Positions 9,572 to 30,147 of a stretch of 64,000 bases of DNA are shown here, in pieces. This stretch comes from Terriglobia bacterium (lineage in GTDB: Bacteria; Acidobacteriota; Terriglobia; UBA7540; JAPUME01). Every line of letters begins with the position of its first letter. The first letter of the stretch is position 1. The notes beneath the pieces are model-generated. The model worked only from the letters and a program-made list of their open reading frames with translations. It was not told where the DNA came from and searched no databases. The stretch is from NCBI GenBank assembly GCA_965237895.1, contig CBDEGR010000001.1, positions 25,253-89,252 on the forward strand, read 5' to 3'. A program made the position numbers and the translations under genes.

Positions 9572-9629
9572 GTTGGGTTTTGACCGGACTCAAGGTCCTG
9601 GCAAGGGGTAGGGAAAGTGGGTCCCCTGG

Positions 9630-9866
9630 CTCGACCAAGCGCGTTCTCACGACGAGCGGAGCTGTTGCAGTTCGAAAACCATTACTGTAACAACGTGCTG
9701 CGCAGCCCGTAGGGCATGGCCGTGACAGCAACTACCGTCAAGAAACCGTCAGAAAACCCGCCCCTCAAGCGGGCTAACCGTAGGCGTTGCGAGCGAAAGC
9801 AGACGCCCCAAAACCGTGTAAAAGTAACGAAAGGAAGGAGTTGGGAGAAAACCATGGAAGACGCCA
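9630..9866. repeat. About 240-bp repeat (integrase 5' end plus upstream region), inverted copy at 34785..35021
   Basis: Hand alignment: GCAGTTCGAAAAC..CAGCCCGTAG(G/A)GCATGGC..ACTACCGTCAAGAAACCGTCAGAAAAC..GTAGGCGTTGCGAGCGAAAGCAGACGCCCCAAAACCGTGTAA. Roughly nine in ten positions are identical by eye. Confidence 0.8.
9716..9865 (+). pseudogene. Tyrosine-integrase N-terminal stub
   Basis: MAVTATTVKKPSENPPLKRANRRRCERKQTPQNRVKVTKGRSWEKTMEDA matches the N-terminus of the integrase pseudogene at 34934, then diverges. The sequence near 9950-10015 (AGCACAG..GACCTG..TTTTTGGCACAG) resembles the region just after the intact integrase stop (61985-62035). Confidence 0.6.
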
Positions 9867-10004
9867 GCTTGACTCCTAAATGGCTACCTCTCCTCTTCTC
9901 CTTTCACTCTCTCCCTTATTTTTCATAGCTTTACACTCATTCAGGGATTCTGCTTTCGCTCAGCACAGAACCCTTTTGGGCTGCTTGACCTGCATTTCTG
10001 ACAC

Positions 10005-13168: not shown

Positions 13169-13213
13169 ACTGACCATTATACATAAGCGTTCATGCAACG
13201 TCAAGAGAAAAAG

Positions 13214-14293
13214 TTACATCGAAACAAGCCGCGGGAAGTTTATGATGTTCGGGAGATACATTGCCCGAAAGTTCGATTCCTTTTCTGCCAGCAGGTCTCC
13301 CATTTGTTTTGCGCTGTAGCCAAGCTTGCTCATATGAAACTCTATCAACCGTTCCAGTGCCCTGGGCCTCTCAAAGGGAATGTTGGTTTCAGGTGGTTCT
13401 CGAAAGCTGTGGGTGCGCTTGCGGAGATTTATCAGTAGGTAGCGCCTCTGTGATGGTGTGATTGTGCCGAGCTGATATGCCCGCTGAACCAAGGAGGACA
13501 TCGAAACTTTCCATTCGCGCTTTAGAGCGGCCAATTTTGGAAGATTCAATCTATTCAGATAGGGCTTAATCTCGCGTGTTGGAAGCAAAAACTCTGCCGA
13601 AAACCGTTTTGCCTCATCCTCCATATTGGGAGTCGGAAACTTGTGCATGATTACGTGACCAAGTTCATGAGCAAGCGTGTTTCGATCACGATCTGCGCTG
13701 ATTTCTGGGTGGCTATTAGAGAAAAATATTGGGGGACACATCTCGGTCCATTCGCTGATAGCATCAGCTTTGCGGGTACCAAAATTAAACCGGACTATGA
13801 TGCCTCCATTGCTTTCGATGGCATCGATAAGATTTCGGATCGGGCCGGATGGTAGCCGCCATGCTCCCCGGACAAGCTGTGCGATCTTTTCAATATCGTT
13901 CCCATATTCCTGGGGGTCCATATATTGAAAGCCTACGCGTGAATCAAGTTCAGCGGAGCGAAGAAGCCTTTTGATGTGGTTGCGCTTAATATTCAATTGG
14001 GCGTGGAGTTTCCTGAGAATTTTGATGCCGAGCCCTTGCTGTTTTCTGTGGTAGAAAATGCTGGAACCAAACCCGTACACAGTATCCTTCTGAGAAAAGA
14101 AGTGTACTGGATATTCCAATGACAGAGCGATTTGTTCCAGAAGTTCATCCGGCATCTGTATCATGCGATTTTCAATTTTTGAGATGGTCCCTTGGCGCAC
14201 ATGGACAGGTAGCTTGCGTACCAAGGCTGCTTGCGTAAGGCCACGCGCCTCCCTAGCCAGAACGAGCACGTCTGGGTTGAATTCAACCATCAT
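13214..14293 (-). CDS. XRE-type HTH fused to an ImmA/IrrE (COG2856) zinc metallopeptidase
   Basis: N-terminal LVLAREARGLTQAALVRKL..GTISKIENR (HTH_XRE). HExxH as TLAHELGHVIMH, followed by EDEAKRFSAEFLLP. Confidence 0.85.
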   Translation of the reverse strand: MMVEFNPDVLVLAREARGLTQAALVRKLPVHVRQGTISKIENRMIQMPDELLEQIALSLEYPVHFFSQKDTVYGFGSSIFYHRKQQGLGIKILRKLHAQLNIKRNHIKRLLRSAELDSRVGFQYMDPQEYGNDIEKIAQLVRGAWRLPSGPIRNLIDAIESNGGIIVRFNFGTRKADAISEWTEMCPPIFFSNSHPEISADRDRNTLAHELGHVIMHKFPTPNMEDEAKRFSAEFLLPTREIKPYLNRLNLPKLAALKREWKVSMSSLVQRAYQLGTITPSQRRYLLINLRKRTHSFREPPETNIPFERPRALERLIEFHMSKLGYSAKQMGDLLAEKESNFRAMYLPNIINFPRLVSM

Positions 14294-14895
14294 GCAGTCC
14301 CGCTTTGCAGCCTACGCTGCGCTACGCCTCTAACTTGGACCAATCGAGTTGGGTTATCCTTAAAGGCCCTTTCGGTCTCAGCGATTGAGATTACTTTCGG
14401 GTTCGGCATGAACAGTTCAATATCCACATCCAACACAGCGCCATCCCGCGACGCGATACGCACATCACGGATGGTGGTCTGTAACGGATTCAGCCGATAC
14501 CCTAGCGTCGCCCGTTGAGCTTTCGGGGGGATGCCAGGCAATTCAGCCCCGGCCTCGTAGAGTCGAATGAATTTCGTGCGTACATTCGAGGGGTCTTTTG
14601 TTTCATTCAGTTTTTTAAGGCGCAACAAAATTTTCTCTTCGATTTCAACGAGAGTGTGGCCGTTCCGAACCTCAATGATCCGCACCCCGTCAGTCCCCGA
14701 TGGAAACTCTACGTGCGCTCGGTGACATGCGAGGTCATGGATAATGCAGGCCCTGCTCCTGGGCGAGAGGATCGCTTGTTCGGGGAAGCCCTCGAAATAG
14801 TTAAAGGCGGGCATGGCTCCGATCCGCCACAAAGCATCGGCGACTGGTTCCAAAAGGCGAACAGTTTCGGCTTCTGTGAGTCTTTTTCGATTCAT
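14290..14895 (-). CDS. Hypothetical protein, upstream operon partner of the XRE-ImmA fusion
   Basis: Stop overlaps the next start (ATGA at 14290-14293). Start chosen at ATG 14895, preceded by GGAGGA. No recognisable domain. Confidence 0.55.
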   Translation of the reverse strand: MNRKRLTEAETVRLLEPVADALWRIGAMPAFNYFEGFPEQAILSPRSRACIIHDLACHRAHVEFPSGTDGVRIIEVRNGHTLVEIEEKILLRLKKLNETKDPSNVRTKFIRLYEAGAELPGIPPKAQRATLGYRLNPLQTTIRDVRIASRDGAVLDVDIELFMPNPKVISIAETERAFKDNPTRLVQVRGVAQRRLQSGTA

Positions 14896-16875: not shown

Positions 16876-17300
16876 TTGAAGCCGATAAATAAAATATCAA
16901 GGCTGATCCGCATAGCTACTGCCGTGCTCGTGGCGGGTGGCCTCGCCATCATGGTGCTCTCGGCACAGGACGATCTCGACACAGTCAGGCAAGCTGCTGA
17001 CCAAGGAGACGCCGAAGCACAGTATAACTTAGGACTCATGTATGCCGCAGGACGATGCCGAAGCGGTGCGCTGGTTCCGGCTCGCTGCCGATCAGGGCTA
17101 CGCCGAAGCGCAGGTCTTCCTCGGGCTCATGTACGACAATGGCGAAGGCGTGCCGCAGGACGATGCCGAAGCGGTGCGCTGGTACCGGCTGGCCGCCGAT
17201 CAGGGTCACGCCATTGCCCAATTCAACCTCGGAGTCATGTACAACAATGGGCAGGGTGTCCTCAAGGATTCCGTGCTCGCGCATATGTGGTTGAACATCG
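16876..17300 (+). pseudogene. Sel1 (TPR-like) repeat protein, frameshifted near 17043 and 3'-truncated by IS3 debris near 17300
   Basis: Signal anchor, then GDAEAQYNLGLMYA (frame 1). This continues as PQDDAEAVRWFRLAADQGYAEAQVFLGLMYDNGEGVPQDDAEAVRWYRLAADQGHAIAQFNLGVMY in frame 2. The reading then runs into antisense IS3 orfA. Confidence 0.7.
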
Positions 17301-17304
17301 CAAG

Positions 17305-17585
17305 CGCCATTCTCCCGTTCCAGTTCCTTCAGACGCCTCACCTGATCCACTCGTAAGCTCCCGTACTCCTTCCGCCATCGGTAATAGGTCTGCTCCGTAA
17401 TTCCCAACTTCCGACAGACCCCTCCCGTTGTCTGGCCCTTGGCCAGCTCCACTTCCGCCTCTCGTAGATGTCGGATGATCTGTTCGGCTGCATATCGCTT
17501 CTTCGGCATTCCTCCCCCCTTCCATGTCCAGTCCGTACCCTAACCTCTAACTTATCAACTGGACCGATTTAAGGGGGGCAGGTCA
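17305..17585 (-). mobile_element. IS3-family remnant (left end + first ~68 codons of orfA)
   Basis: Terminus TGACCTGCCCCCC (reverse complement, ending at 17585). orfA MPKKRYAAEQIIRHLREAEVELAKGQTTGGVCRKLGITEQTYYRWRKEYGSLRVDQVRRLKELEREN stops abruptly. Confidence 0.7.
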
Positions 17586-17621
17586 GCAGGTTTCTCCGGT
17601 GGATCTGATTTGCCGGACCTG

Positions 17622-18080
17622 TCAGACACCTTGAGTCGAAAGTCTGGTTGTCAAAATCAGTTCGTCTAGCGCCAAAAAAACCAAGGAGAGCGGAGGCCAG
17701 AAAGTTTTTTCACCATCGTCAACAAGAACGGTGTATTTCAAGGCGTGCTTCTTGTGTTGATCCGATAATCCATCCACTACCGCAGTAGTGTCATCAGTTA
17801 CAGACACGCCTTTGTTTTTTAATTCAATCAACAAAGCCAATAAGTTGTGCCTATAATCAAACTTTCTGAGTTGGACTTCGGGGAAACCACGTTTGAGCAA
17901 GGCTGCTTTAAGAAATAGTTCGGCTGCATGAGATGCAAGGAAGTAGAGAGGAATTGCTGTTAATTTGGTTGGGCGGCCATCGCTATCCAATTCAACATGG
18001 CTCCGCAACTGTTCAGCGCTTGCACGAAAATCGGCACCGTTCAGATAATATGCGACTGCAAGTGGTACGTTGTCTTTCAT
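17622..18080 (-). CDS. Orphan HEPN-domain protein
   Basis: SHAAELFLKAALLKRGFPEVQLRKFDYRHNLLALLIEL follows the classical HEPN helix pattern (E..LKA.L ... R-x5-H.L..L). Start chosen at ATG 18080 (MKDNVPL). Confidence 0.5.
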   Translation of the reverse strand: MKDNVPLAVAYYLNGADFRASAEQLRSHVELDSDGRPTKLTAIPLYFLASHAAELFLKAALLKRGFPEVQLRKFDYRHNLLALLIELKNKGVSVTDDTTAVVDGLSDQHKKHALKYTVLVDDGEKTFWPPLSLVFLALDELILTTRLSTQGV

Positions 18081-18172
18081 ACTTTGTAGCTTCCTCCCGA
18101 GCTGCAGCCAAGCCGTGGGCCTGCTTAGCCAGACTTGTCGACCTCGAGATCCTTGGCCCTTGCTGGACAATA

Positions 18173-18469
18173 TCAGTCTTCGACATCATTCATTCCCCGA
18201 GCGGCCCTTCGCGCCATCGCGAGCGTCACCAATCCCTCATCTGGCCTCTCTTGGCTTGCCTTCAGCCGCCCTGCGCGGCTTTCCGGTTTGCGATGTTTGC
18301 CCATGCTTTGCCTCCGCTCATCCCTGAGCTTCCCGTTAAAGCTCTCCACATAGCCATTCTCCCAAGGACTGCCAGGCTCGATGTATAGTGTCCTGACACC
18401 CACGGCCTTAAGCCAGTCCCAGATCGCCTGAGCTGTGAACTTCGGTGAAAAATTCCGTCGTTTTACCAT
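18173..18469 (-). pseudogene. IS3-family orfB (integrase-core) C-terminal remnant
   Basis: FTAQAIWDWLKAVGVRTLYIEPGSPWENGYVESFNGKLRDE parallels FTARLVRDWLERVGVKTLFIEPASPWENGYVESFNGKFRDE of the intact orfB at 31913..32761. The remainder is degenerate. Confidence 0.7.
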
Positions 18470-18759: not shown

Positions 18760-20040
18760 CTACCGGACGATGAGGACCTGACCGGCATAGATCCGGCTGT
18801 TGCGCAACCTGTTCAGCCTCATCAGCTCGCGGATCCCGAGGCCGAACATCCCGGCGATGCGCGACAGCGTGTCGCCCCATTGGACGCGATACCCGCCATC
18901 GCTACTGACTTGGCCCGAGCCGGGACCAACGACCAGCGTCTCACCCGCGAAGATCCGGTCCGAGGGAAGCCGGTTGAACGCCATTAACGCTCTGACGGAA
19001 GTTCCATACCGCCAGGCGATCTCCGACAGCGTGTCGCCCGGACGGACACGATACCTCCGCCCGTCACCGCCTTCTTTGGGGGCTCTCGCCATGATGCTCA
19101 CGGCTGGGTAGCTGAAATCCAGGGGCTGGTCAAGCGTCAGCGGACCGAAGTAGCGCTCGTAGTCCTGGTAGACGTGGACGGCGGCCAGGAACTCCGGGTA
19201 AAAGTTCTTCGAGGCGTACTTGAATGCGCGCCCCCTGTACTTGCGGATGATCTCCGCCATGTCGGATCCGTGCAGGCTGCGCGCGCGCAGCATTCCCGCC
19301 CGTCCGTGGTTATAAGCGGTGATCGCAAGGGGCCAGGATTGGAGTTGCTCATAGTTCCCTCGGAGTAGCTTCGCCGCCGCGCGCGTGGCGATCGCCGGGT
19401 TCAGACGGTCGTCGCGGCCGCGAGCCACACGCATGTACCGACGGCCGGTCGCTCGGGTGAACTGCCAGATGCCGGCGGCGCCCGCATGGGAATACGCTGC
19501 GTTCTCATAGGACGACTCGACCAGGGGCAGCAGCGCCAGGATCGGCGGCACTCCTTCGCTCTCGAGCAGCTCTTCGAAATAGGGAAGGTACCGGCCCGAG
19601 CGAATGACCCCGGCGCGGAAACGCTCCTTGATACCGCGTTGCATGTGGATCCGGTTCATCAGAATGGCGATATTGCTCGCCGTCATGCGCACGCCTTCGG
19701 CTTCGATCCGGTTGTAAAAGACCCGCGCCTGCGCGCTGAGTCCTTCGGGTGTGTCAATACCCCGCCGCACCTCGTTCAGCAGGCGGCGCACACGCGCGAC
19801 GCCCGACCGGCGCGATTTCTCGTCGACGACATCGTAGATCAGATTGACCCGCTCGGTGTCGTGGATGATGAGGTCGTCCTCGCCATAGATCGTGAAGACC
19901 TTTTCCCAGGACGCGATCCGATCTTCGAGCCCGGTTTCCGGAAAACCCGGAATTTCGGCCAGGGCGGACACTGGAGAAATCGCCTTAACGACGAGGAGTG
20001 GAAGCAGCCAACCGAAGATTTTCATTTGGGAATTATACAC
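18760..20040 (-). CDS. mltD: Membrane-bound lytic murein transglycosylase D-like (SLT domain + 2 LysM)
   Basis: Signal peptide. LVESSYENAAYSHAGAAGIWQF (SLT catalytic Glu motif). Two LysM repeats (YRVRPGDTLSEIAWRYGTSVRALMAFNRL; YRVQWGDTLSRIAGMFGLGIRELMRLNRL). Confidence 0.85.
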   Translation of the reverse strand: MYNSQMKIFGWLLPLLVVKAISPVSALAEIPGFPETGLEDRIASWEKVFTIYGEDDLIIHDTERVNLIYDVVDEKSRRSGVARVRRLLNEVRRGIDTPEGLSAQARVFYNRIEAEGVRMTASNIAILMNRIHMQRGIKERFRAGVIRSGRYLPYFEELLESEGVPPILALLPLVESSYENAAYSHAGAAGIWQFTRATGRRYMRVARGRDDRLNPAIATRAAAKLLRGNYEQLQSWPLAITAYNHGRAGMLRARSLHGSDMAEIIRKYRGRAFKYASKNFYPEFLAAVHVYQDYERYFGPLTLDQPLDFSYPAVSIMARAPKEGGDGRRYRVRPGDTLSEIAWRYGTSVRALMAFNRLPSDRIFAGETLVVGPGSGQVSSDGGYRVQWGDTLSRIAGMFGLGIRELMRLNRLRNSRIYAGQVLIVR

Positions 20041-20343: not shown

Positions 20344-22617
20344 TCATGATTTGAACTGATACGGAAAGGCTGCGATCCGCACCCACTGGCCGGAGCGCAA
20401 CCGCACCGCCCTGAAAGGTTCCAGCCGATTCGCATCCACCTCGGTGCCCCGGGTGGAATTCAGGTCCTCGACCCAGATCGCTCCGTCAACGAGTCGCAAT
20501 CGCAGGTGACGCCGCGATACTTGAGGATGGCGAATCTCCACGTGACACAACTCCCTGGCCCTGCCGATCACCAGACCCTCAGCGGACGTGAACAGGTCTC
20601 GACGCAGGGGGATGGGTTCCGAGCCATCCAGAGGGATCAGTGTTCCCACCGCCCTGGCGGGGACAACGGCCGCCGGGGGCGGCACAGGTCCAGCCCGATT
20701 TTCTTCGCCCAAGGCCCCGGGAGCGTCTTCATGGGCGCGAGCGGCTCCCCTCATCGAGTCCCTACCCGGACGAAACTTGACCAGCGCGAACCCCGCAACC
20801 AGTAGCAGAATCGCTGCCACGATCCATAGAATCATTTGCTGAGCCGGGCGGAGCGACTCGCCGGGTTCCGGCAAGGGAAGATCCGGCTTGCCCGGGTCTG
20901 GCGCAGGCTTTGGCTCCGGGGCAGGTTCTTCTTGCGGTTGCGGTGCCGGTACCGGCTTCGGCGAGGGCGTAGGTCTTGGGGGCGGTTCAGGCTCCGGTTG
21001 CGGTGCGGGCTCGGCCTCCGGTTCCGGCTCAGGCTCAATCGGATTCCAGTAGCCCGGTATGCCGATGGCGTCCATGGCCGTGTGCGTGGCCGCCCACTCC
21101 GGCGAGGATTCGCCGTAGTGGATTTCGGCCACAGCCGCGAACGCGTATCGCGCCGCCTCGAAACCGGCGTTCGGCGTGAGCAGATCGGAGGCCGCGCGCC
21201 CGAATATTCTCAGCGCCTTCGCCAACCCCACGCCCTGCACCTCGGGCCCGGAACGCAGGCGAGGGTGCTGGCCGCCCATGGCCAACAGGTAATAGCCCTG
21301 GTTCATGATCGACGAATTGATGTGAACGCCGCCGTTGTCAACGCTGACGTGTCGGTAGTCGTCGAAATGGTCGGGATACGGCTTGCCGGTTTGGGGATCC
21401 ATGAGGCTTGGAGGATCTCTCATATCTCGCATCACACCGCCGGGATGGCGGAGTTGCCAGACCCGCGCCGGGACATCCGCCGGCAGTACCGTGCCGCCAT
21501 TCTCCAGCCAAGCTCGGAACGTCACGCCAACCGCGTCGGCAATGGCCTCGTTCAGGGCGCCCGGTTGCGACTTGTAGATGAGGCCGCTGCCCCAGTGGAT
21601 GATTGCGTGGCCGATCTCGTGACCGATGATCTCGCTATAGTCCAACGCGGCGCTCGGCAATAAGAACGCGTTCAAGCCGCCGTGCCAGAAGGCATTGAAG
21701 GCATCGCCGATACACTGAGGCGGGGGAGCCGTGGGATGGACGCGCACACCGATAAAGCCGTGCAACGTGCCGCCGCGGTCGTCGAGGCTGTCCATGTCTA
21801 GGGTAGCCTCGAGAAACCGATAGACCTCGCCGAACCTTTCGAACAGCCGCTCGACCTCGGCGTTGCCGCGGTGAGACACCTCACTTCGGATATGTCTCTT
21901 CATGGCGCGTCGCGCCAGTCGTAGGGAACGCTGCCAACCGACCACGCGGCGAACCTTGCGATCGCGGCAAGCGGCGCCGAAGTCGTACACGCGGCGGTCG
22001 AGTCCCGGGTGCGTCAGCGAAAAGCGCTGCAAGACGGTTCCTTTGTGCGCATCGACGTACACCCGTTCGAAGCTGACTTGCTCCTCTTCCGGAAACCAAC
22101 CTTCCAGTTCGTAGCTGAGCTTGAGTTCGTCCCCGTCCGGCCAGAACACGAGCCGGCCGGTGGGTGGATGGGCATCGGATGCGTGAGCGGCGGCCAGGAC
22201 ATCATCGAGTCCGAGAGTCGGATCAGCAGAAGGCGGATCGGGAAATGGCGTGTGGTGGCCAAGCAGATGAACGGGCTTGCGGTCGCCGTTCAGGAGCAAT
22301 CGGGATTCCCTGTGAACCACGGGCAGCTCCGCGAGGGTCTGGGCAAGGTTGTAGATGGCGTGGCCGCGCAGGCGGCGCGGCTCGCCTGCGACCTTGAGCC
22401 GGTCGCTGGCGGCCAAGCCAAGCCGCCGGTGCAGTGCTCCGGCCGCCCAACTCGAAACGGCGGCATCATCCGTCAGCCGGGACGCTCCGCGTGAGAAATC
22501 CAGCCGAGTGCCTGGGCGGTGCCGGCCGTCTTCTTGAGCCTGTGCTTCTCCAAAAGCAGCCAAGCACAAGAGCACCGCAGCCAGGCAGCGGCCACGCAGT
22601 TTACTGCGGGGATTCAT
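20344..22617 (-). CDS. Bitopic protein: secreted thermolysin-family (M4) metalloprotease with its own FTP/PepSY pro-region, Pro-rich linker, TM helix, cytoplasmic FHA domain
   Basis: Signal peptide CLAAVLLCLAAFGEAQA. HEIGH followed exactly 20 residues later by the Glu of GALNEAIAD (thermolysin spacing). GGVHINSSIMNQGYYLL. PEPEPEAEPAPQPEP linker. TM MILWIVAAILLLVAGFALV. FHA GLVIGRARELCHVEIRHPQVSRRHLRLRLVDGAIWVEDLNSTRGTEV. Start chosen at ATG 22617. Confidence 0.85.
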   Translation of the reverse strand: MNPRSKLRGRCLAAVLLCLAAFGEAQAQEDGRHRPGTRLDFSRGASRLTDDAAVSSWAAGALHRRLGLAASDRLKVAGEPRRLRGHAIYNLAQTLAELPVVHRESRLLLNGDRKPVHLLGHHTPFPDPPSADPTLGLDDVLAAAHASDAHPPTGRLVFWPDGDELKLSYELEGWFPEEEQVSFERVYVDAHKGTVLQRFSLTHPGLDRRVYDFGAACRDRKVRRVVGWQRSLRLARRAMKRHIRSEVSHRGNAEVERLFERFGEVYRFLEATLDMDSLDDRGGTLHGFIGVRVHPTAPPPQCIGDAFNAFWHGGLNAFLLPSAALDYSEIIGHEIGHAIIHWGSGLIYKSQPGALNEAIADAVGVTFRAWLENGGTVLPADVPARVWQLRHPGGVMRDMRDPPSLMDPQTGKPYPDHFDDYRHVSVDNGGVHINSSIMNQGYYLLAMGGQHPRLRSGPEVQGVGLAKALRIFGRAASDLLTPNAGFEAARYAFAAVAEIHYGESSPEWAATHTAMDAIGIPGYWNPIEPEPEPEAEPAPQPEPEPPPRPTPSPKPVPAPQPQEEPAPEPKPAPDPGKPDLPLPEPGESLRPAQQMILWIVAAILLLVAGFALVKFRPGRDSMRGAARAHEDAPGALGEENRAGPVPPPAAVVPARAVGTLIPLDGSEPIPLRRDLFTSAEGLVIGRARELCHVEIRHPQVSRRHLRLRLVDGAIWVEDLNSTRGTEVDANRLEPFRAVRLRSGQWVRIAAFPYQFKS

Positions 22618-24082
22618 CAGATTCGCCCGCCGGCGCTGCCCGTGAACCGACGACAACGGGCACACGGAGTAGTATTTCCCCTGTCTCGGCATCGAATATC
22701 GTCCGTTCCTCGCCTCGATCGATCAGGACTACGCCTTCCCAGGCCAGACGATAGCCGCCGCCTGCCACCCGAAAGATGACCAAGGTCCCCTCGTCCAACG
22801 CTTCGATCCGTTTGCCGGTCGAGTCTGCGGCAAGGGCGATGGTGGCGGGGTAGTCATGGGCGGGGCGGGGATCGATGTCGATTGCCGGGGCGGGGTGGCC
22901 CTGGATCTTGACGATGCGCCGGCCCTCCGCAATCACCGCCACCTCGGCAGCGAACACCCGGATGTCTTTATGTTTCTGCCTCAATCGGCTGATGGTCTTG
23001 CCGACCATTCGGCGTCCCTTACCAGCCGGTTCCAGGGTGTCCTGGTTGCCGATCCTGCCCGCCTTGCGCAACGCATCGGCGACGGTCTCCGGCACGGTGC
23101 TTCCGGGTTCAACCTCGCGGTCAATTTCGATTTCCACGCGCTCGATGGGCACGGGAATGCCCTCGGGCGGAGTCTCTTCGGCGCTTCGCGACTCTTCCGT
23201 CGACCGCGCCCGGTCATTCGGGTCGGATTCCTCCGTCTCCTGGCGTGGCGCCGCCGCGGGGAGAGGCTGCGCCCTCAGGTTCAGCAACAAGACTGAGGCC
23301 AGCACGGCGAGCAGGAGTGCGCCGATTACCCACCAACGCCGGTTACGCCTGGGAGCGGCGACTTCCGCCAAGATGGCCGTGGTGTTGTCGTGGCGCTGCA
23401 GCCGCTCGAGTTTGTCGGCAAAGCGCGCTTCCAGCTCGCGCCCAGGATTGGATGACTCAAAGACCGCGAGGATTTCGTCGGGCGAGAAGATCTCCCAGAA
23501 GCCGTCGCTGCACACGGCGAACCGCCTGCCTTCCACTAGGTCCCAGCGCTCGACTTGCGCCTCAGGCGCGTCTCGGCCGCCGATCTGCGTGAAGAGCTTC
23601 TTCTGATCCGGATGGGTGGCGAGCGCCTCCTCGGCGATGACGCCGCGCAGCACGTTCAGTTGGGCAATGGAGTGGTCCAGCGTTCGCCGGGCGAGCCCCG
23701 TGCCGGAGAACTGCATGACACGGCTGTCGCCGGCATGGATGGAGGTGACTTCCGCGCCGCGCCCCAGCAGCGCCACCAGTGTAGAGCGGGGATCCAGTCC
23801 CGGCTCGTCCCCCGCCCTGTTCACGGCGGCGTGGCATTCGCGCACCAGATCGGTCAGGAAGGCTTCAGCTTCCAGGTCCTCGCTTCGCGAGTTCCAGCAG
23901 CGCTCGGCGGTCTCGATGACTGTCTGCGCCGCGAGAGCGCCTCCGCGATGTCCGCCGAGGCCATCGGCCACCACCAGGAGAAAGGCGTCTCCGCCAGGCG
24001 ACCGAAGGACCTTCATTCGATCCTGGTTCTCGCACCGGTGCCCGATGTGCGTGAATCCGTGCGCCGTCATCGTAGAGATCAT
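22601..24082 (-). CDS. Bitopic protein: cytoplasmic PP2C phosphatase, TM helix, extracytoplasmic FTP/PepSY-like (M4 pro-peptide-like) module
   Basis: PP2C motifs LLVVADGLGGHRGG, AVCSDGFW, HDNTTAIL. TM WWVIGALLLAVLASVLLL. The ectodomain VADALRKAGRIGNQDTLEPAGKGRRMVGKTISRLRQKHKDIRVFAAEVAVIAEGRRIVKIQGH ... RLAWEGVVLIDRGEERTIFDAETGEILL parallels the pro-region of the downstream M4 protease. Start ATG 24082. Its stop overlaps the M4 start by 17 nt. Confidence 0.8.
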   Translation of the reverse strand: MISTMTAHGFTHIGHRCENQDRMKVLRSPGGDAFLLVVADGLGGHRGGALAAQTVIETAERCWNSRSEDLEAEAFLTDLVRECHAAVNRAGDEPGLDPRSTLVALLGRGAEVTSIHAGDSRVMQFSGTGLARRTLDHSIAQLNVLRGVIAEEALATHPDQKKLFTQIGGRDAPEAQVERWDLVEGRRFAVCSDGFWEIFSPDEILAVFESSNPGRELEARFADKLERLQRHDNTTAILAEVAAPRRNRRWWVIGALLLAVLASVLLLNLRAQPLPAAAPRQETEESDPNDRARSTEESRSAEETPPEGIPVPIERVEIEIDREVEPGSTVPETVADALRKAGRIGNQDTLEPAGKGRRMVGKTISRLRQKHKDIRVFAAEVAVIAEGRRIVKIQGHPAPAIDIDPRPAHDYPATIALAADSTGKRIEALDEGTLVIFRVAGGGYRLAWEGVVLIDRGEERTIFDAETGEILLRVPVVVGSRAAPAGESDESPQ

Positions 24083-24167: not shown

Positions 24168-24196
24168 TTGAGCCGCCCTCGAACGTCTGCTATTAT
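24168..24196 (+). promoter_or_regulatory. Candidate sigma70-type promoter for the kinase gene
   Basis: TTGAGC - 17 nt - TATTAT in the 240-bp divergent intergenic region between the PP2C and kinase genes. Confidence 0.3.
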
Positions 24197-24321
24197 ACTC
24201 CTCACGCCTTGCGGTGTAATATCGCTACTCGGTGGAGCGTCCGATTGCCGTGATTCGCGGCGAACCCGCCCAAGTTTTGCTCCAGCGCGGATAAGCTCAA
24301 TCGCAGAAAGAGAGGGATGCC

Positions 24322-26151
24322 TTGCAGACGGAAGGCCGGTCGCGGAATGCGTTGCCGCCCGGCACCGTGCTGAACGGTGTTTACCGGGTCGAGGTGGAGG
24401 TGGGCCAGGGGGGCTTCGGCATCGTGTACCGGGCACAGCACAACGAGTTGGGCTATCGGGTCGCAATCAAGGAGTACCTGCCGGCGGAGTTGGCCGTACG
24501 CGAGGGCCGCTCCGTCCACCCCCGCAGCGTGGACTGCCGCGAACAATACCAAGAGGGCCTGCGCCGCTTCCTGGAGGAGGCGAAACAACTCATCCAGTTC
24601 CGAGCTCATCCAAGCATCGTCTCCTGCCGGGACTTCTTCCGGGCCAACGGCACGGCGTACCTGGTGATGGAGTACGAAGAGGGCCTGCCGCTGTCCGAGT
24701 TGCTGCAGGTACGGGAGGAGGAGGGAAGGCCCTTCGGCGAGGCGGATTTGCGGAAGGTGATGGTGCCGCTGCTGGAGGGTTTGGCGCGCGTGCATGCAGC
24801 GGGGGTGCTGCACCGGGACGTCAAGCCGGCGAACATCCTGGTGCGGCGGGAGGACGAGCGTCCGGTGCTGATCGACTTCGGCGCGGCGAAGCAGAACTTT
24901 GCGGAGCACAGCAAGTCGCTGGCGCCGGTTACGGCAGGGTACGCGGCCATCGAGCAGGTGGGGGAGGGCAAGCTGGGCCCGTGGACGGACCTGTACGCGG
25001 CCGGGGCGGTGATGTGGCGCATGGTGGCGGGAGGGAACCGGCCGTTCGAGCCGCCGAATCCGGTGAAGGTGGAGAGTCGGACCCATGCGGTGTTGCGGGA
25101 AGAGGCGGACCCGCTGCCGTCGGCGCGGGAGTTGGGTAGGGGGCGGTTTTCGGAGCGAGTGCTGGGAGCGATCGACCAGTGTCTGGAGTTGCGGGAAGCG
25201 GACCGGGTGCAGGACTGTGGGGAGTTACTGGGTCTGCTGGATGCGAAGAGGAAACGCGACGAGGGGAGGCAGAAGTTCACCGCCGCGGACGGGAGCGTAT
25301 GGGAAGGCCCCGTTGTGGACGGCCAGCGGCAAGGTCACTGGGTCGCTCGCCGGGCGGACGGGACCGTAGGAGAAGGACCCTTTGTGGACGGTCAGCGACA
25401 CGGCGACTGGGTCTGGCGCTTTGCGGACGGGAGCGTGTACGACCTCTCCTATATGACCGGAAAGCGGGTCTCCTCCGTCCGGCGGGGGGTGGCGCCGGCG
25501 GCAGCGGAGCCGCGGCCTGATAAGGCAGAAGCCAAACCCTCGCGTGCCGCATGGAAGTTTTCGAGGCGTTGGAAGTGGATTGCGGCGGGGTTCGCGATGC
25601 TAGCAATTAGCTCGAACCAGTTTCTTCAGAATCTGAACCGCGGCGAGGGTAGGCAAAAGTTCACCACCGCAGACGGGAGCGTATGGGAAGGACCCTTTGT
25701 GGACGGCAAAAAGCATGGCAACTGGGTCGTACGCTTGGCGGACGGGACCGTAGCGGAAGGTCCCTTTGTGGACGACAAGCGGCACGGCGACTGGGTCGAG
25801 CGCTTTGCGGACGGGACCGTAGGGAAAGGTCCCTATGTGGACGACAAGCGGCACGGCGACTGGGTTGTTCCCTTGGCGGACGGGTCCGTACAGGAAGGTC
25901 CCTATGTGGACGACAAGATGCACGGCCGCTGGGTCATTCGCTTGGCGGACGGGTCCGTAGCGGAAGGTCCCTTTGTGGACGACAAGATGCACGGCCGCTG
26001 GGTCATTCGCTTGGCGGACGGGACCGTACAGGAAGGTCCCTATGTGGACGGCAAGCAGCACGGCAACTGGGTCTGGCGCAAGGCGGACGGGACCGTGTAC
26101 GACGTCTCCTATAGGAACGGCGAGCAGGTCTCCTTCGTCCGGCGGAAGTAA
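24322..26151 (+). CDS. Hanks-type Ser/Thr protein kinase with two MORN-repeat blocks separated by a TM helix
   Basis: GQGGFGIVY, VAIK (Lys50), HRDVKPANIL (Asp166), DFG, APVTAGYAAIE. MORN block 1 (res 315-388), TM WKWIAAGFAMLAISS, MORN block 2 (res 442-609, six 23-aa repeats GP(F/Y)VDxK.HG.WV.R.ADG(T/S)V.E). TTG start as in the ORF track. Confidence 0.9.
   Translation: MQTEGRSRNALPPGTVLNGVYRVEVEVGQGGFGIVYRAQHNELGYRVAIKEYLPAELAVREGRSVHPRSVDCREQYQEGLRRFLEEAKQLIQFRAHPSIVSCRDFFRANGTAYLVMEYEEGLPLSELLQVREEEGRPFGEADLRKVMVPLLEGLARVHAAGVLHRDVKPANILVRREDERPVLIDFGAAKQNFAEHSKSLAPVTAGYAAIEQVGEGKLGPWTDLYAAGAVMWRMVAGGNRPFEPPNPVKVESRTHAVLREEADPLPSARELGRGRFSERVLGAIDQCLELREADRVQDCGELLGLLDAKRKRDEGRQKFTAADGSVWEGPVVDGQRQGHWVARRADGTVGEGPFVDGQRHGDWVWRFADGSVYDLSYMTGKRVSSVRRGVAPAAAEPRPDKAEAKPSRAAWKFSRRWKWIAAGFAMLAISSNQFLQNLNRGEGRQKFTTADGSVWEGPFVDGKKHGNWVVRLADGTVAEGPFVDDKRHGDWVERFADGTVGKGPYVDDKRHGDWVVPLADGSVQEGPYVDDKMHGRWVIRLADGSVAEGPFVDDKMHGRWVIRLADGTVQEGPYVDGKQHGNWVWRKADGTVYDVSYRNGEQVSFVRRK
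25645..26148 (+). repeat. Coding tandem repeat, 69-bp period (MORN units); a shorter copy of the same block lies at 25264..25485
   Basis: Adjacent units at about 25909-26046 are almost identical at the nucleotide level (GACGACAAGATGCACGGCCGCTGGGTCATTCGCTTGGCGGACGGG.CCGTA..GGAAGGTCCCT.TGTG). Confidence 0.9.
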
Positions 26152-26180: not shown

Positions 26181-27185
26181 TCAAATGCCGAGAATGGCGA
26201 GCAGCACGCTGGCGATCATGGACTCGCCGCCCGACCCATCGACAAACCGCCCCCGGCCGGCCTTGGCGAGTTCCCGCAGGAACGGTTCCGAGTTGCCGGA
26301 TTGCTCCCACGCCATGACCGCGGAAACATGCTGTCCGTCGGCCGCCGCAAACGCCCGAGCCGTCTGCAGGGCCGCGGCTTCCTTTTCGGGATAGGCTGGA
26401 TTATCCGTCACCGCGATGATGTAGCGGCGCTGGCTGACGGAACGCCAGTTCAGCGCCACGGCCCGGTCCAAGGCCATTGCCAGCGCTTCGGGATTATCGC
26501 GGTTTCTCCCGGCATAGGGATCACGCATATTTGGCCTCAGCGTTTCCACAAAGCGCTCCAGGGGCGCTAGGTTCGACGTCTCTACGATTTCCTGGACGTG
26601 AAGCGGCTGCTGCCAACGCCTGTCACCGAAGGCCACGACGCCGATGCCGGTGGAGGGCGTTAGCCTGTCCAACACCTTGGCCAGGTTCTCGATTTCCCGC
26701 TTCAGCCCTTCGACATGATCCTCCATGCTGGCGGTCACGTCCAGGCAGATCACCAGGTCGAGATCGGGAATCCGCACCTTGGCCAGCGTTTTCGCTAGGT
26801 CGCTGGCTCTTTCCTTGACTTGGTCGAGTTGCCGCTCAGCTTCGTTGAGCCGCCGCTCCGTTTGATTGCGATGGAGTTCCGCCTCGTCGCGCTGGCGTGC
26901 CAGCCTCTCGCCTTCATCGTCAGCCCCCTTGCGTTCCCGTGCCAGCTTCTCGGCTTCGTCACGCTGACGCTCCGCTTGATCTCGCTGGCGCCGGGCCGCG
27001 TCGCGCTGCTGTCTGGTCTCTTCGAGCGTCACCTTGACGTTCTTGATGCGTTCCCTGGAATCCCCGGTGTTGGGGAAGAACGGCAGCACCATCACCGCCA
27101 ACAGGATGAAGGCGCCCATGCCGGATGCGAACAGGTCCAGCGCGGACATGGAGAAGATGTTGATCTCCCGGCTGCGCCGCTTCAA
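26181..27185 (-). CDS. ExbD/TolR-like N-terminal TM anchor + charged coiled coil + von Willebrand A (vWA) domain
   Basis: MKRRSREINIFSMSALDLFASGMGAFILLAVMVL resembles the ExbD/TolR N-terminus, including an Asp at the TM entrance. RQ/RD/AE heptad-rich segment. vWA start DLVICLDVTASM (MIDAS-like DxTxS), GVVAFGD, IIAVTDN. Confidence 0.7.
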   Translation of the reverse strand: MKRRSREINIFSMSALDLFASGMGAFILLAVMVLPFFPNTGDSRERIKNVKVTLEETRQQRDAARRQRDQAERQRDEAEKLARERKGADDEGERLARQRDEAELHRNQTERRLNEAERQLDQVKERASDLAKTLAKVRIPDLDLVICLDVTASMEDHVEGLKREIENLAKVLDRLTPSTGIGVVAFGDRRWQQPLHVQEIVETSNLAPLERFVETLRPNMRDPYAGRNRDNPEALAMALDRAVALNWRSVSQRRYIIAVTDNPAYPEKEAAALQTARAFAAADGQHVSAVMAWEQSGNSEPFLRELAKAGRGRFVDGSGGESMIASVLLAILGI

Positions 27186-28681
27186 CGGCTCCCGTCCTTG
27201 AGAAAGTGCACCACAAGATCAATGTCGCCCAGTGTGAGACGCGACCCGTCCCGGACGACGAGCGCTTCTCCGGGCTTCAACCTGACGCCGTCGAGACTCG
27301 TGCCGTTCAAGCTGTTCATGTCTTCGATGGTCATGGCGTCGCCGTCCACGCGGAGGCGGGCATGCTCGCGGGAAATGCTGTCCACGCCGATGACGTAGTC
27401 CGCATTGGCGGAAGAGCGGCCGATCACCTGGCCGGCTTCCGATCTGGCGAGGGCGTTGCCGTTGACCTTGACGCGCAGTTCCTGCTCGAGCGGCCCCACG
27501 CCGGCCAGAATCACGTCGGAGAAGGTGACGTTGCCGCGCTCCAGGCGGCTACGGGCCGCCGACAGCTCTTGGTCGGATTCACGCAGCCTGCGCTGGCGCG
27601 CGCGAAACTGCCGTCTTACCAGAACTCCGGCCACCAGGAACAGGGCTCCCAGAACGATGCCGATGAACCACTGTCGGCGGCGCAATTCCTCCTGTTCCCG
27701 CTGCCGCTGTGCGAGCTCTTCATCCTTGCGGTGGCTTTCCTCTTGGTGCCGTTCTATTTGCTCTTCCAGGTCTTTCTGCGACTGCGACTGCTCTTTCAGC
27801 GCCTGTTGCTTGCTGGCCAGCTCCTGACTTTGCCTCCGCAGGTGTTCTTCCAGTGCCGCCTTGTTCGCTTCGAGTTCCTGCACCTGCTCCTGATTCTGCT
27901 GTTGGTTCTCGCTCGACGCTGCCTTGAGCTGCTCGAGTTTCTGCTCCAGCGCGGCTTTCTCCTCTTCCACCTGTTGTCTTTCCTGCTCCAGCGCTGCCGT
28001 TCCCTCTTCCAGCTCTTTCCCCGTTTTCTCTGCCTGCAAGAGCTGATCTTGCAGAGAAGGGCAGACTTCGCCGCTGGTCTCAAACTCGACTGCCTGCGCT
28101 TTCAGGAAGGCCACGAGGGCCGACAGGGCGCCGCTGACGCCCAAATTCGCATCGCCGCCGCCCGGGCTGCTCGGCTTGCTCTGGCTGATGGCCAGGAGTT
28201 CATCGCAGTTGTTCATGAGCGGCGCCGCGGCCTCGTCCTCCCCAACGATGGAAGTGAATCGATAGCGGACTTGCTCATCCTTCCCTTTGAAGATGGAGTG
28301 CAGCGTGCCTTTGCGCCGAGTCCCTTCCGGAACCAGGAGGTACACTCGTCGGCCCTCTCCCGATGCTTCCAGAGCAACCGTCACCGGCTCGCCGCCCAGA
28401 CCCGGGACCGAAAGCAGCGCCAGATCGGCGTCCGCTTCGCGGGCCTTCACGGTAGCCACCAACCGGGCGCCCGTGGCCGGATCGTGGACCAGGTACTGGC
28501 CTCCGCGCGAAACCAAGCGATGACTGGTCAACAGCAGTCCGTCTGCCATCAGCACGCTCACGCCCGCCGCCGCTTCCTCGCCGCGCTTTTGCACCACGAG
28601 GCGGAATGCGGTCTCGGCCATGGCGGGCGCCGCCGTCGCCAGAATCGATGCGAGGACCAGGAGCTTTTGGATTCTGTTCAT
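27182..28681 (-). CDS. Bitopic protein: signal peptide, trypsin-like (S1C-fold) module lacking the catalytic Ser motif, long coiled coil, TM helix, cytoplasmic FHA
   Basis: LLLTSHRLV and ADADLALLSVPG match the His and Asp regions of HtrA-like proteases. The GNSGGP position reads EDEAAAPLMNNCDELLAIS. About 130 aa are E/Q/K-rich coiled coil. TM WFIGIVLGALFLVAGVLV. FHA QVIGRSSANADYVIGVDSISREHARLRVDGDAMTIEDMNSLNGTSLDG. Confidence 0.7.
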   Translation of the reverse strand: MNRIQKLLVLASILATAAPAMAETAFRLVVQKRGEEAAAGVSVLMADGLLLTSHRLVSRGGQYLVHDPATGARLVATVKAREADADLALLSVPGLGGEPVTVALEASGEGRRVYLLVPEGTRRKGTLHSIFKGKDEQVRYRFTSIVGEDEAAAPLMNNCDELLAISQSKPSSPGGGDANLGVSGALSALVAFLKAQAVEFETSGEVCPSLQDQLLQAEKTGKELEEGTAALEQERQQVEEEKAALEQKLEQLKAASSENQQQNQEQVQELEANKAALEEHLRRQSQELASKQQALKEQSQSQKDLEEQIERHQEESHRKDEELAQRQREQEELRRRQWFIGIVLGALFLVAGVLVRRQFRARQRRLRESDQELSAARSRLERGNVTFSDVILAGVGPLEQELRVKVNGNALARSEAGQVIGRSSANADYVIGVDSISREHARLRVDGDAMTIEDMNSLNGTSLDGVRLKPGEALVVRDGSRLTLGDIDLVVHFLKDGSR

Positions 28682-28693: not shown

Positions 28694-29458
28694 CTAGGGT
28701 TTGATTTCTTGTCCGTCCGGGCGGAACACGATCACGGTGGCATTGTCTTGCGACGGCAGGGCGTGCGCTTCGACGGCTTGCAGGATGGCGCCGACCAGGC
28801 CGGCGGAAGATGACGGGCCATCGGCGATTTCACGCAGCTCTTCGAGTGAGCACGTCTCCACCCCGTCGCTGGCCAATACCACAAGGTCTCCGGGTTGGAG
28901 CGGCAGAGGGTCCGGCGGCGCGTCGACCCGTTCGATGTCTTCTCCCAGCACGGCCTCCAGCAACCGGGATCGCTCGGCGTCTTCGGCGGCTTCCTGGACC
29001 GTGATCTCGCCGGCCGCGGCGCGTCGGTCGAGGACGCCTCCGATGGAGTGATTCTCGTTCAAGCGATGCACCTCGCGGTTGCGCAACAACCACAGCGGGC
29101 TATCGCCTACACTCACCCACTGCAGCGAATTCCCATCCACGGCGGCGGCTACCAGCGTCGTGCCCATGCCGGCCAAGTGCGGCTCCGCCTCGATACGGTC
29201 GAACAGTGCGAGGTTCGCCGCCTGGAGCGCTCGGAGCAAGCGCTCCCTGGAGCCTGGATCGCGGGCTTCGACAAACGCATCGCGGAAGCTCTCGACCACG
29301 GTGGCGCTGGCTGCATCGCCCGCGGCATGCCCGCCGATGCCATCTCCCAGCAGCAGCAGGTGATAACCGTTGGGCCAGGACAGGCAGGCCGCCCGGTCCT
29401 GCTGAGACTCCCGTTGCCCCTGTATCTGCCCCCAGGCGATGTCGGCCGCCACCGTCAC
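28694..29458 (-). CDS. Soluble PP2C-family Ser/Thr phosphatase
   Basis: LLLLGDGIGGHAAGDAAS, MGTTLVAA, VVLASDGV, QDNATVIVF. Confidence 0.9.
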   Translation of the reverse strand: MTVAADIAWGQIQGQRESQQDRAACLSWPNGYHLLLLGDGIGGHAAGDAASATVVESFRDAFVEARDPGSRERLLRALQAANLALFDRIEAEPHLAGMGTTLVAAAVDGNSLQWVSVGDSPLWLLRNREVHRLNENHSIGGVLDRRAAAGEITVQEAAEDAERSRLLEAVLGEDIERVDAPPDPLPLQPGDLVVLASDGVETCSLEELREIADGPSSSAGLVGAILQAVEAHALPSQDNATVIVFRPDGQEIKP

Positions 29459-30147
29459 TCACCCGGTTCTTCCTGGTCCAGCCATGTGAACTCGTCGTCG
29501 CAAAACGCTATGAATCGCAAGGTCGTTTCGCCCAGGGCAATCCGGCTTCCGGGAGGCAAGGGGGTCGTCTCCAGTACGGGATTCTCGTCAAGATACACCA
29601 GATTGACGCCTTGCCCCTGCTGAACGTAGAACCGATTTCCCCTGGGGTCGTAGGTGAGAACGGCGTGGTCGTTCCGAGAAATCTGCTGGTCGCCGAAGTT
29701 CAGGCGCACGCGGCAGGTCTCGCCTCGGCCGATGCCGTTCTGTCCGTTGCCCAAGCGCACAGAGGAACCCTTGCCCGGGCCATCCACCACCACCAGCCAG
29801 CCGACGACCGGATCCGCCATTCCCGGCTCGTCGCCGCCCTCGGCCCCCTTGCCCGGGGCCCGCCGCCGTCCCCCTGCAATCACGGTCCTCGGATCTCTGC
29901 CTTCCTGGGTATCGCCGCGCGCTCCGCCGCCCGCGGAGCGGGTCACCGGTTTCGTCGGCGCCTCTTCCGGGAACAAGGAGCTGCGCTGTGACCGCGACGG
30001 CGGCGCCGTCGGATCATCGCCTGAGGAAGCACTGCCCGGCCCGGCCGCCTTGTCCGATTCACGGTTCGCAAGTCGCGGCGCATCCTCCGGCAGCGGTGTG
30101 GATGGGATATCGACGGGCACGCCGTCCGGGCCCAGTTTCTTCGCCAT
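29455..30147 (-). CDS. FHA-domain protein with ~120-aa disordered Pro/Ser/Thr-rich N-terminus
   Basis: GWLVVVDGPGKGSSVRLGNGQNGIGRGETCRVRLNFGDQQISRNDHAVLTYDPRGNRFYVQQGQGVNLVYLDENPV. Its stop overlaps the PP2C start (ATGA). Confidence 0.85.
   Translation of the reverse strand: MAKKLGPDGVPVDIPSTPLPEDAPRLANRESDKAAGPGSASSGDDPTAPPSRSQRSSLFPEEAPTKPVTRSAGGGARGDTQEGRDPRTVIAGGRRRAPGKGAEGGDEPGMADPVVGWLVVVDGPGKGSSVRLGNGQNGIGRGETCRVRLNFGDQQISRNDHAVLTYDPRGNRFYVQQGQGVNLVYLDENPVLETTPLPPGSRIALGETTLRFIAFCDDEFTWLDQEEPGE

Follow-up and report, generated by a model that had tools for sequence, protein, structure and literature searches.

The 64,000-nucleotide stretch of a Terriglobia bacterium contig analyzed here (the window) carries, on its reverse strand, two overlapping genes whose products are both predicted to span the membrane. 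The upstream gene encodes a PP2C-type phosphatase followed by a transmembrane (TM) helix and an extracytoplasmic domain that we refer to as ECTO (PP2C-TM-ECTO, or PP2C-ECTO for short). The downstream gene encodes a thermolysin-like protease of family M4 that carries its own propeptide (PRO) and a C-terminal FHA domain (M4-FHA). The pair is part of a conserved eight-gene cluster, which also encodes a kinase, a VWA protein, a trypsin-like-TM-FHA protein, a soluble PP2C, an FHA protein and a MotA/ExbB-like protein (Table 1). Both open reading frames (ORFs), their starts and the 17-nucleotide (nt) overlap recorded in an initial annotation of this DNA were confirmed from the ORF list and translations, and the overlap makes translational coupling of the two genes plausible. 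Two promoter-like sites were observed, compared with 0.5 expected.

Table 1. Features of the PP2C-ECTO/M4-FHA pair, its cluster and its surroundings in the window.
Feature	Positions	Strand	Details	Basis
PP2C-TM-stalk-ECTO gene	22601..24082	-	493 aa; ~80 homologues alike in architecture	ORF and start; Pfam PP2C_2
PP2C (PPM) domain, predicted cytoplasmic	23339..24082	-	aa 1-248; metal-binding motifs ENQD, ADGLGGH, CSDGFWE, HDNTT	Pfam, motifs
TM helix 1	23273..23332	-	WVIGALLLAVLASVLLLNL; aa ~250-268; preceded by RRNRR; predicted N-in	Hydropathy, positive-inside rule
Linker, predicted extracytoplasmic	23168..23272	-	Acidic, Pro-containing	Read from sequence
ECTO	22637..23167	-	FTP+PepSY two-domain M4 propeptide homologue; ends in G-x-[IVL]-L-x-R-[VL]-P motif	AlphaFold2, Foldseek, hhalign, profiles
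Overlap of PP2C-ECTO stop and M4-FHA ATG	22601..22617	-	17 nt	
M4-FHA gene	20344..22617	-	757 aa; signal peptide-PRO-M4 catalytic domain-Pro-rich stalk-TM-FHA; ~75 homologues alike	ORF and start; Pfam
Sec-type signal peptide	22537..22617	-	MNPRSKLRGRCLAAVLLCLAAFGEAQA; predicted cleavage after AQA	Read from sequence
PRO	21982..22497	-	The protease's own FTP/PepSY-type propeptide, more diverged; approximate boundaries	BLASTP, hhalign
M4 thermolysin-like catalytic domain	21043..21981	-		Pfam, motifs
HEIGH	21607..21621	-	Within the M4 catalytic domain	
Glu357	21547..21549	-	Within the M4 catalytic domain	
GGVHINS	21313..21333	-	Within the M4 catalytic domain	
Pro-rich stalk, predicted extracytoplasmic	20848..21042	-	65 aa; EP/KP type	Read from sequence
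TM helix 2	20779..20835	-	MILWIVAAILLLVAGFALV; aa 595-613; followed by K/R-rich KFRPGRDSMR	Hydropathy
FHA domain, predicted cytoplasmic	20374..20571	-	Phosphothreonine-binding residues GR, SRRH, NSTRGT intact	Pfam FHA
Sigma-70-like promoter match	24192..24220	-	ATTACA-17-TATAAT; ~110 nt upstream of PP2C-ECTO start	Consensus match only
Divergent promoter match toward kinase gene	24168..24196	+		Consensus match only
Divergent Hanks-type Ser/Thr kinase	24322..26151	+	MORN-like repeats flanking a TM segment	Pfam Pkinase, 129 bits
TM-coiled-coil-VWA protein	26181..27185	-		Pfam, synteny
Trypsin-like (apparently dead)-coiled-coil-TM-FHA protein	27182..28681	-		Pfam, synteny
Soluble PP2C	28694..29458	-		Pfam, synteny
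FHA protein	29455..30147	-		Pfam, synteny
MotA/ExbB-like protein	30188..31009	-		Pfam, synteny
LysM x2 + SLT lytic transglycosylase	18760..20040	-	303 nt downstream of M4-FHA gene	
Insertion sequence/transposase genes and fragments	17036..18469, 31913..32761, 2194..3522		rve, DDE_Tnp_1_4	
Eco57I-like type IIG restriction-modification enzyme	6014..9259	-		
IrrE/M78 peptidase	13214..14293	-		
Weak HEPN-like ORF	17622..18170	-		
Conjugative gene set	45790..62011	+		

The initial annotation described the downstream product as a bona fide M4 protease joined by a Pro-rich linker and a TM helix to a cytoplasmic FHA domain, and both parts of that description held up. The protein matches Pfam Peptidase_M4_C at 114.8 bits (cut-off, 24.4), with the N-terminal Peptidase_M4 domain at 15.9 bits (cut-off, 22.4). 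The third zinc ligand, Glu357 (in GALNEAIAD), lies exactly 20 residues past His337 of HEIGH (aa 333-337). GLIYKSQ and DNGGVHINS (GGVHINS, aa 429-435) are also present, and we take these to be the equivalents of Tyr157, Asp226 and His231 of the catalytic site (thermolysin numbering). The M4+FHA architecture defines a family of ~75 clusters, in which the HExxH+E pattern is kept in 73 of 75 members (the remaining 2 have a 4-aa insertion) and GGVHxNS in 69 of 75. A homologue with 70% identity was modeled; its catalytic portion gave matches to thermolysin, neutral protease and aureolysin (E values of 1e-19 to 1e-13), and the whole catalytic unit compared with thermolysin gives a TMt of 0.73 and an E value of 5e-19. 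On this pattern of motifs and matches, the protein is a member of Peptidase family M4 with a thermolysin-type active site, and proteolysis is predicted.

The FHA domain scores 52.1 bits (cut-off, 20.7) and carries the GR...SxxH motif found in all 75 family members; it is an FHA domain whose phosphothreonine-binding pocket is predicted to be intact. Because a signal peptide and a single TM helix are followed by K/R-rich sequence, the M4 domain is predicted to lie outside and the FHA domain inside, on opposite sides of the membrane as the annotation had supposed; fused relatives, described below, agree. Topology was assigned throughout from hydropathy, the positive-inside rule and signal-peptide features rather than with a dedicated predictor. 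A lipoprotein signal was considered for the window protease and rejected because there is no lipobox. The Pfam Trypan_PARP match on the stalk is compositional only. The stalk is a Pro-rich spacer of the (EP)n/(KP)n type, a kind that lets TonB span the periplasm, and the same cluster includes a gene for a MotA/ExbB homologue.

The N-terminal domain of the upstream product matches PP2C_2 at 57.9 bits (cut-off, 24), and its family profile matches the structures of Stp1, PstP (2cm1) and PppA (6jkv) with E values of 1e-25 to 5e-35. Depending on the motif, the metal-binding residues are present in 67 to 79 of 80 family members. The protein thus belongs to the PPM/PP2C family, and the phosphatase looks active. 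No signal peptide was seen on this product and RRNRR precedes its single TM helix, so PP2C is predicted to lie inside and the C-terminal ~225 aa outside. The linker that follows the helix differs in length between homologues.

ECTO is a complete homologue of the two-domain (FTP+PepSY) propeptide of M4 proteases, as judged by family profiles, profiles of PDB sequences and fold. The initial annotation had aligned the ectodomain by eye with the protease's own pro-region and proposed an FTP/PepSY identity; BLASTP recovered that alignment in an identical register (27% identity over 161 aa; E value, 4e-6), and more sensitive comparisons bore out the identity. With hhalign, the ECTO family profile matched the PRO family profile with 98.4% probability (E value, 6e-15) and a set of 30 classical propeptides, from M4 proteases without FHA, with 99.2% probability (E value, 1e-19; 144 columns). 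PRO matched the same set with 98.5% probability and an E value of 4e-15, and by this measure PRO is the more distant of the two from classical M4 propeptides. Among 5.8 billion proteins, a search identified ~80 with the PP2C-(TM)-ECTO architecture, many of them with a precomputed FTP match; when the members of alignment A1 were scanned one by one, Pfam FTP was detected in 67 of 78 ECTO homologues. Against PDB sequences, the family profile identified the pro-regions of thermolysin (E value, 9e-9), vibriolysin MCP-02 (4e-7) and pro-LasB (2e-5). An AlphaFold2 model of the window ECTO (predicted local distance difference test [pLDDT], 90.8; predicted template modeling score [pTM], 0.82) had as its top three Foldseek matches in the PDB the propeptide chains 4k90_B (fungalysin), 3nqz_A and 3nqy_A (both vibriolysin MCP-02), with a probability of 1.0, TM-scores of 0.5-0.6 and ~180 columns; the fourth match was the C-terminal domain of the PepSY protein YpeB.

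A propeptide in the strict sense is N-terminal to and contiguous with its catalytic domain. The window ECTO is on a separate polypeptide, and we therefore call it a propeptide homologue in trans; in the fused relatives P0129, L009, P0192 and P0193 and in P0091-type proteins, the domain does occupy that position. ECTO proteins that stand alone all end 4-20 residues beyond the G-x-[IVL]-L-x-R-[VL]-P motif, which would be close to where a processed propeptide ends. Identity between ECTO domains is 40-65% across phyla. Compared with its closest, 93%-identical relative, the window ECTO has a ratio of nonsynonymous to synonymous substitution rates (dN/dS) of 0.44, a value of low power, with few substitutions, that is only weakly supportive. 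The family is small, since the window ECTO had only 94 matches at an E value of ≤1e-3 among 1.84 billion representatives. One other protein, P0261 (2,022 aa), has 17 separate stretches that match the window ECTO, which suggests tandem FTP-like repeats.

The initial annotation had proposed checking whether the two architectures co-occur. We mapped 20 distinct loci with M4+FHA, the window included, from Bryobacterales metagenome-assembled genomes (MAGs), gammaproteobacterial MAGs, Ca. Rariloculaceae, Alteromonas stellipolaris and Haliea sp.; a scan of genome contigs contributed at least 8 loci. A scan of metagenome contigs with the FHA-tail alignment A4 returned 34 loci, all of them generic FHA proteins and none M4-FHA. 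At all 13 loci with a PP2C-TM-ECTO unit, the M4 domain either comes next downstream or belongs to the same protein, and the spacing is -17, -14, -4, -1 or +1 nt where the genes are separate. Conversely, an ECTO-type domain was present at 18 of 20 M4-FHA loci, a count that rests on look-ups of individual loci. Sixteen more pairs have an equally long longest contig; this is only a proxy for a shared contig. The genetic coupling of PP2C-ECTO and M4-FHA looks obligatory.

Several architectures are represented among these relatives. The commonest (form A) is that of the window, PP2C-TM-ECTO followed by a protease with signal peptide, PRO, M4, TM and FHA (also L004-L007, L010, L011, L013 and L016). 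In form B (L008 and L003), the protease has no propeptide, and the mature start, IDRRIFDF or DRRVYDV, follows directly after the signal peptide. Form C is a single polypeptide, PP2C-TM-ECTO-M4-TM-FHA (P0129, a 1,159-aa ORF in L009, P0192, P0193, P0251 and P0257), whereas form D (P0091 and L012) has a lipoprotein signal, an ECTO-type propeptide and M4-TM-FHA without PP2C. An anchored ECTO stands alone upstream of PRO-M4-TM-FHA in form E (L015, L053 and L054). In addition, PP2C and TM-ECTO are two genes in L051, L052 has PP2C without ECTO, and L006 carries a solo M4-FHA paralogue (875..3424). In L003, a Bryobacterales MAG, the PP2C-ECTO frame (9011..10534) breaks inside ECTO, the ORF ending at 10387 and the tblastn match extending to 10534. 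Either a frameshift or assembly error has interrupted the frame or the gene is a pseudogene; the protease of this locus lacks its own propeptide.

In the fused proteins, GEILLRLPVTLH of ECTO is followed at once by GLERRVYDF, where the mature domain begins, and neither a signal peptide nor a second propeptide comes in between; ECTO is therefore at the exact position of a propeptide. We considered whether the fusions were frameshift, assembly or read-through artifacts and rejected this, because the signal peptide and PRO expected from read-through are gone, P0129 occurs on two independent assemblies, and fusions recur at three or more positions in a tree. For P0129, the ECTO-M4 segment gave an AlphaFold2 model that is confident as a whole (pLDDT, 91.9; pTM, 0.86); one half of it matches catalytic chains of M4 enzymes, and the other matches propeptide chains. 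In a rough neighbor-joining tree of the catalytic domain, built without support values, form A occurs throughout, fusions occupy at least three separate positions, and forms B and D form one clade each. The repeated fusions keep one order and one topology every time. Because these two-TM proteins carry PP2C and FHA at their ends, the membrane must separate ECTO and M4, which share a side, from PP2C and FHA.

On balance, and with moderate confidence, we favor the view that the pair constitutes a split M4 zymogen in two membrane-tethered halves, wired into Hanks-type kinase/FHA/PP2C signaling, with binding of M4 by ECTO as a tethered propeptide at its core; our confidence in any particular direction of signaling is much lower. 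FTP and PepSY are reported to guard against premature activation and to act as inhibitors of the protease (PMC5078317). In relatives of the window pair, ECTO is either at the propeptide position of the same protease in one chain or its only propeptide, and a role as chaperone and inhibitor of the protease is suggested because the enzyme of some relatives has no other propeptide. In the proposed mechanism, ECTO would serve in the periplasm as a trans-propeptide that binds the catalytic domain of M4, both helping it to fold and inhibiting it. Its C-terminal tail, R-[VL]-P-x-x-[LIV], may mimic a processed propeptide, since this conserved tail ends where the fused relatives enter the mature domain. 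The contact outside would hold the two membrane proteins together and so place PP2C beside FHA in the cytoplasm, yielding a two-chain, FHA-targeted phosphatase of the KAPP or DRA0334 kind (see below). The FHA domain would dock the pair on phosphothreonine written by the co-encoded kinase(s), and PP2C would erase that mark. Activation of the protease, with ECTO released or destroyed, could then uncouple the phosphatase from its reader; in the reverse direction, clustering that depends on phosphorylation could unite the protease with its inhibitor.

Several observations weigh against this proposal. The window protease retains PRO, and ECTO is therefore not required as its sole foldase. The ECTO-only, split-gene, PP2C-only and solo M4-FHA loci listed above indicate that the covalent link between PP2C and ECTO is frequent, not obligatory. 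Taken alone, the window ECTO stays below Pfam thresholds (no FTP match; PepSY at 13.4-13.6 bits against a cut-off of 24) and the window PRO has no Pfam match, so that the homology of ECTO and PRO is seen only with family profiles and structure. Finally, the sample of loci is biased, consisting chiefly of MAGs and metagenome contigs. Of the interpretation offered in the initial annotation, the identity of M4-FHA, the propeptide nature of the ectodomain and the co-occurrence of the two genes stand, and none of the three outcomes that it had named as refuting (an ectodomain unlike FTP/PepSY, FHA and protease on one side of the membrane, and architectures that never co-occur) was observed. The reciprocal trans-membrane read-out that it had inferred, in which protease occupancy outside is read by the phosphatase and phosphothreonine status inside by the FHA domain, is somewhat weakened by the variants without a covalent PP2C-ECTO link (L015 and L051-L054).

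Three other explanations deserve consideration, each of which we regard as unlikely. ECTO may serve mainly as a substrate or decoy, with the protease cutting the ectodomain or stalk of the phosphatase and thus releasing or destabilizing it; information would then flow only from outside to inside, as in regulated proteolysis. Mature M4 enzymes generally degrade their own released propeptide, ECTO sits on a long unstructured acidic/Pro linker that would offer an accessible cut site, and the two genes are tightly linked. A cleavage target, however, needs neither a conserved folded FTP+PepSY core nor a C-terminal tail motif, and in the fused or propeptide-less relatives ECTO must serve first as a propeptide. 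We consider this the most probable of the three, and it is not mutually exclusive with a trans-propeptide role. Somewhat less probable is an absence of any trans-membrane coupling, such that an ordinary propeptide/protease unit has by chance been joined through fission and fusion to signaling domains from its neighborhood, PP2C and FHA serve only to bring both proteins to one kinase complex, and the window ECTO is a redundant leftover. The plasticity of the architecture (fused, split, ECTO-only and PP2C-only forms) and the PRO of the window protease would fit such a history. Set against them, PP2C-TM-ECTO with PRO-M4-TM-FHA is the commonest and most widespread state in the rough tree, ECTO is kept across Acidobacteriota and Gammaproteobacteria with a dN/dS below 1, and independent fusions repeatedly hold the same order and topology.

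The least probable of the three, in our estimation, is that ECTO is a PepSY-type regulator of another partner, such as the dead trypsin-like protein, the VWA protein or a cell-wall hydrolase, and that its adjacency to the protease reflects shared regulation only. There is precedent in YpeB, whose PepSY domain holds the non-M4 cortex hydrolase SleB inactive (PMC13556211), and the C-terminal domain of YpeB is the fourth Foldseek match of ECTO. A candidate client, the LysM/SLT lytic transglycosylase, is encoded just downstream of the pair in the window, but tblastn found no match to it in any mapped related locus. ECTO moreover has the full FTP+PepSY pair and not only PepSY, it resembles classical M4 propeptides more strongly than PRO does (1e-19 versus 4e-15), and at least three lineages have it fused exactly where a propeptide lies, whereas in others it is the sole propeptide.

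The other genes of the cluster place the pair in a larger signaling context. Synteny of companion genes was found in L001, L003, L004, L007-L009, L011-L013, L051, L053 and L054, and a kinase is present in every related cluster. The C-terminal domains of these kinases are diverse (MORN-like/TM in the window; Sel1, FGE-sulfatase, ankyrin, PEGA and peptidoglycan-binding domains in L003, L013, L051, L052 and L012), and several related loci have 2-4 kinases. In the trypsin-like-TM-FHA protein, the Ser position of GxSGG falls in GE[A/G]xAPLMNNC in 10 of 10 aligned homologues and the catalytic His is not conserved; the protein appears to be catalytically dead, so that a live protease and a pseudoprotease would occur together in the cluster, both of them tethered to an FHA domain in the cytoplasm. 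The N-terminal TM segment of the VWA protein, REINIFSMSALDLFASGMGAFILLA, contains an Asp and is near-invariant from Acidobacteriota to Gammaproteobacteria, beyond the conservation of the VWA domain. Asp-bearing N-terminal helices of this kind recall ExbD, TolR and MotB, the partners of MotA/ExbB proteins. Because this helix co-occurs with a MotA/ExbB-like protein, the two are suggested to form an ExbB/ExbD-like proton-driven pair with VWA as its periplasmic output; the ExbD profile had no match to the VWA protein. Soil metagenome contigs (L017-L020 and L025) carry small groups of MotA, TM-VWA and FHA (+VWA) genes without protease or PP2C-ECTO, and MotA/VWA/FHA may therefore be a separable core module. 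PADLOC gave generic domain matches only, and no NCBIfam model scored above its curated cut-off; as no such model fits, we do not name the cluster as a defense system or equivalog.

Insertion sequence/transposase genes and fragments bracket the cluster, and G+C content falls in two places, 12-18 kb (0.50-0.54) and 36-40 kb (0.51-0.52). To the right lies a conjugative gene set with an ArdC anti-restriction + zincin protein, a VirB4/TraG-like ATPase, TrbI/VirB10, a type IV coupling protein and a tyrosine integrase. The signaling cluster may be cargo of an integrative conjugative element or a neighbor to one. To the left are genes for an Eco57I-like restriction-modification enzyme, an IrrE/M78 peptidase and a weak HEPN-like ORF (Table 1). 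Close relatives have GmrSD_C, HEPN_Toprim (L016) or DruA (L052) as neighbors. The setting is defense-island-like on this circumstantial evidence. In L053, the M4-FHA gene is closely followed by a diversity-generating retroelement (bAvd and reverse transcriptase; 13107..14772), which lies beside an FGE-sulfatase fragment.

A broader proposal, which we regard as doubtful at present, takes in the whole cluster. In it, the propeptide/protease contact outside would act as a reversible dimerization switch that assembles and disassembles a split FHA-PP2C reader-eraser, so that latency and phosphorylation are mutually controlled, within a new envelope system of MotA/ExbB motor, VWA stator and dead trypsin-like-TM-FHA protein that may relate to conflict or defense.

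A full-text search of the literature found no description of M4+FHA, of PP2C fused to a propeptide or of the whole cluster, and the names in databases are generic only ("M4 family metallopeptidase" and "protein phosphatase 2C domain-containing protein"); the PP2C-ECTO/M4-FHA pairing is conserved and apparently undescribed. To our knowledge, the inputs and outputs of bacterial Hanks-type kinase/FHA/PP2C circuits are mostly not established. The pair is a concrete candidate for a physical connection from a cytoplasmic phosphothreonine circuit to an extracytoplasmic enzyme: its outside part is a protease and an inhibitor domain of the protease's own family, with a binding mode known from crystal structures, and its inside part combines a reader with an eraser of one mark. 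The natural variants (fused, split, propeptide-less, ECTO-only and PP2C-only) are ready-made genetic controls, and cultivable carriers such as Alteromonas stellipolaris and Haliea make the idea testable with standard genetics and biochemistry. If it is correct, a protease propeptide has been retained as a stand-alone, membrane-tethered regulatory module.

Among known systems, the classical M4/M36 zymogens (thermolysin, vibriolysin MCP-02, Pseudomonas aeruginosa LasB and fungalysin) share with the window pair their catalytic motifs and the fold and profile of a two-domain propeptide, and the fused relatives share their canonical order of propeptide and then mature domain. They differ in that the propeptide homologue of the window is on a separate, membrane-anchored chain behind a cytoplasmic PP2C, and in that the window protease is itself anchored, with a cytoplasmic FHA domain and a second propeptide in cis. 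Helpers supplied in trans are known in the lipase-specific foldase Lif and in the propeptides of thermolysin and LasB, which can act in trans. As here, YpeB-SleB and Lif involve an adjacent gene for a membrane-anchored extracytoplasmic domain dedicated to one enzyme. Unlike YpeB, Lif and the trans-acting prosequences, however, the helper in the window bears a cytoplasmic signaling enzyme and its client an FHA domain.

On the cytoplasmic side, the domain order of PP2C-TM-ECTO resembles that of PstP of Mycobacterium tuberculosis, which has an N-terminal cytoplasmic PP2C, one TM helix and a C-terminal outside domain. We know of no evidence that the PstP ectodomain is a protease propeptide, and ECTO, unlike it, has an identifiable fold and a genetic partner. 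The window cluster also joins vWA, a Hanks-type kinase, PP2C and FHA, as do the TerY-P triad, the Sulfolobus ArnA/ArnB FHA-vWA network and the type VI secretion system (T6SS) proteins PpkA/PppA/Fha1; the adjacency of vWA, Ser/Thr kinase and PP2C genes is found here, with two PP2C genes. In contrast to TerY-P, the vWA protein of the window is TM anchored through an ExbD/MotB-like helix with a conserved Asp and is probably periplasmic, not a soluble TerY-like protein. No Ter or T6SS genes were found in the window cluster, which, unlike all three systems, also includes a MotA/ExbB protein along with two protease(-like) TM-FHA proteins. The likeness to TerY-P is a resemblance only.

A further parallel lies in phosphatases that carry their own reader. 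The plant protein KAPP consists of an anchor, a KI-FHA domain and a PP2C. Deinococcus radiodurans DRA0334 combines KI-FHA and PP2C in a vWA-STPK-FHA-PP2C operon (bioRxiv 10.64898/2026.01.23.701218). These proteins, like the window pair, place an FHA reader and a PP2C eraser at the membrane beside a Ser/Thr kinase, and the window cluster has a vWA gene as well. A KAPP-like single chain of FHA and PP2C was not found in the window, and the fused relatives, which are one chain, have the order PP2C...FHA. KAPP and DRA0334 have the two domains in another order, and the window pair carries them on two chains whose sole evident link is the propeptide/protease pair outside. By analogy, the pair possibly works like a KAPP-type phosphatase, without being a member of that family.

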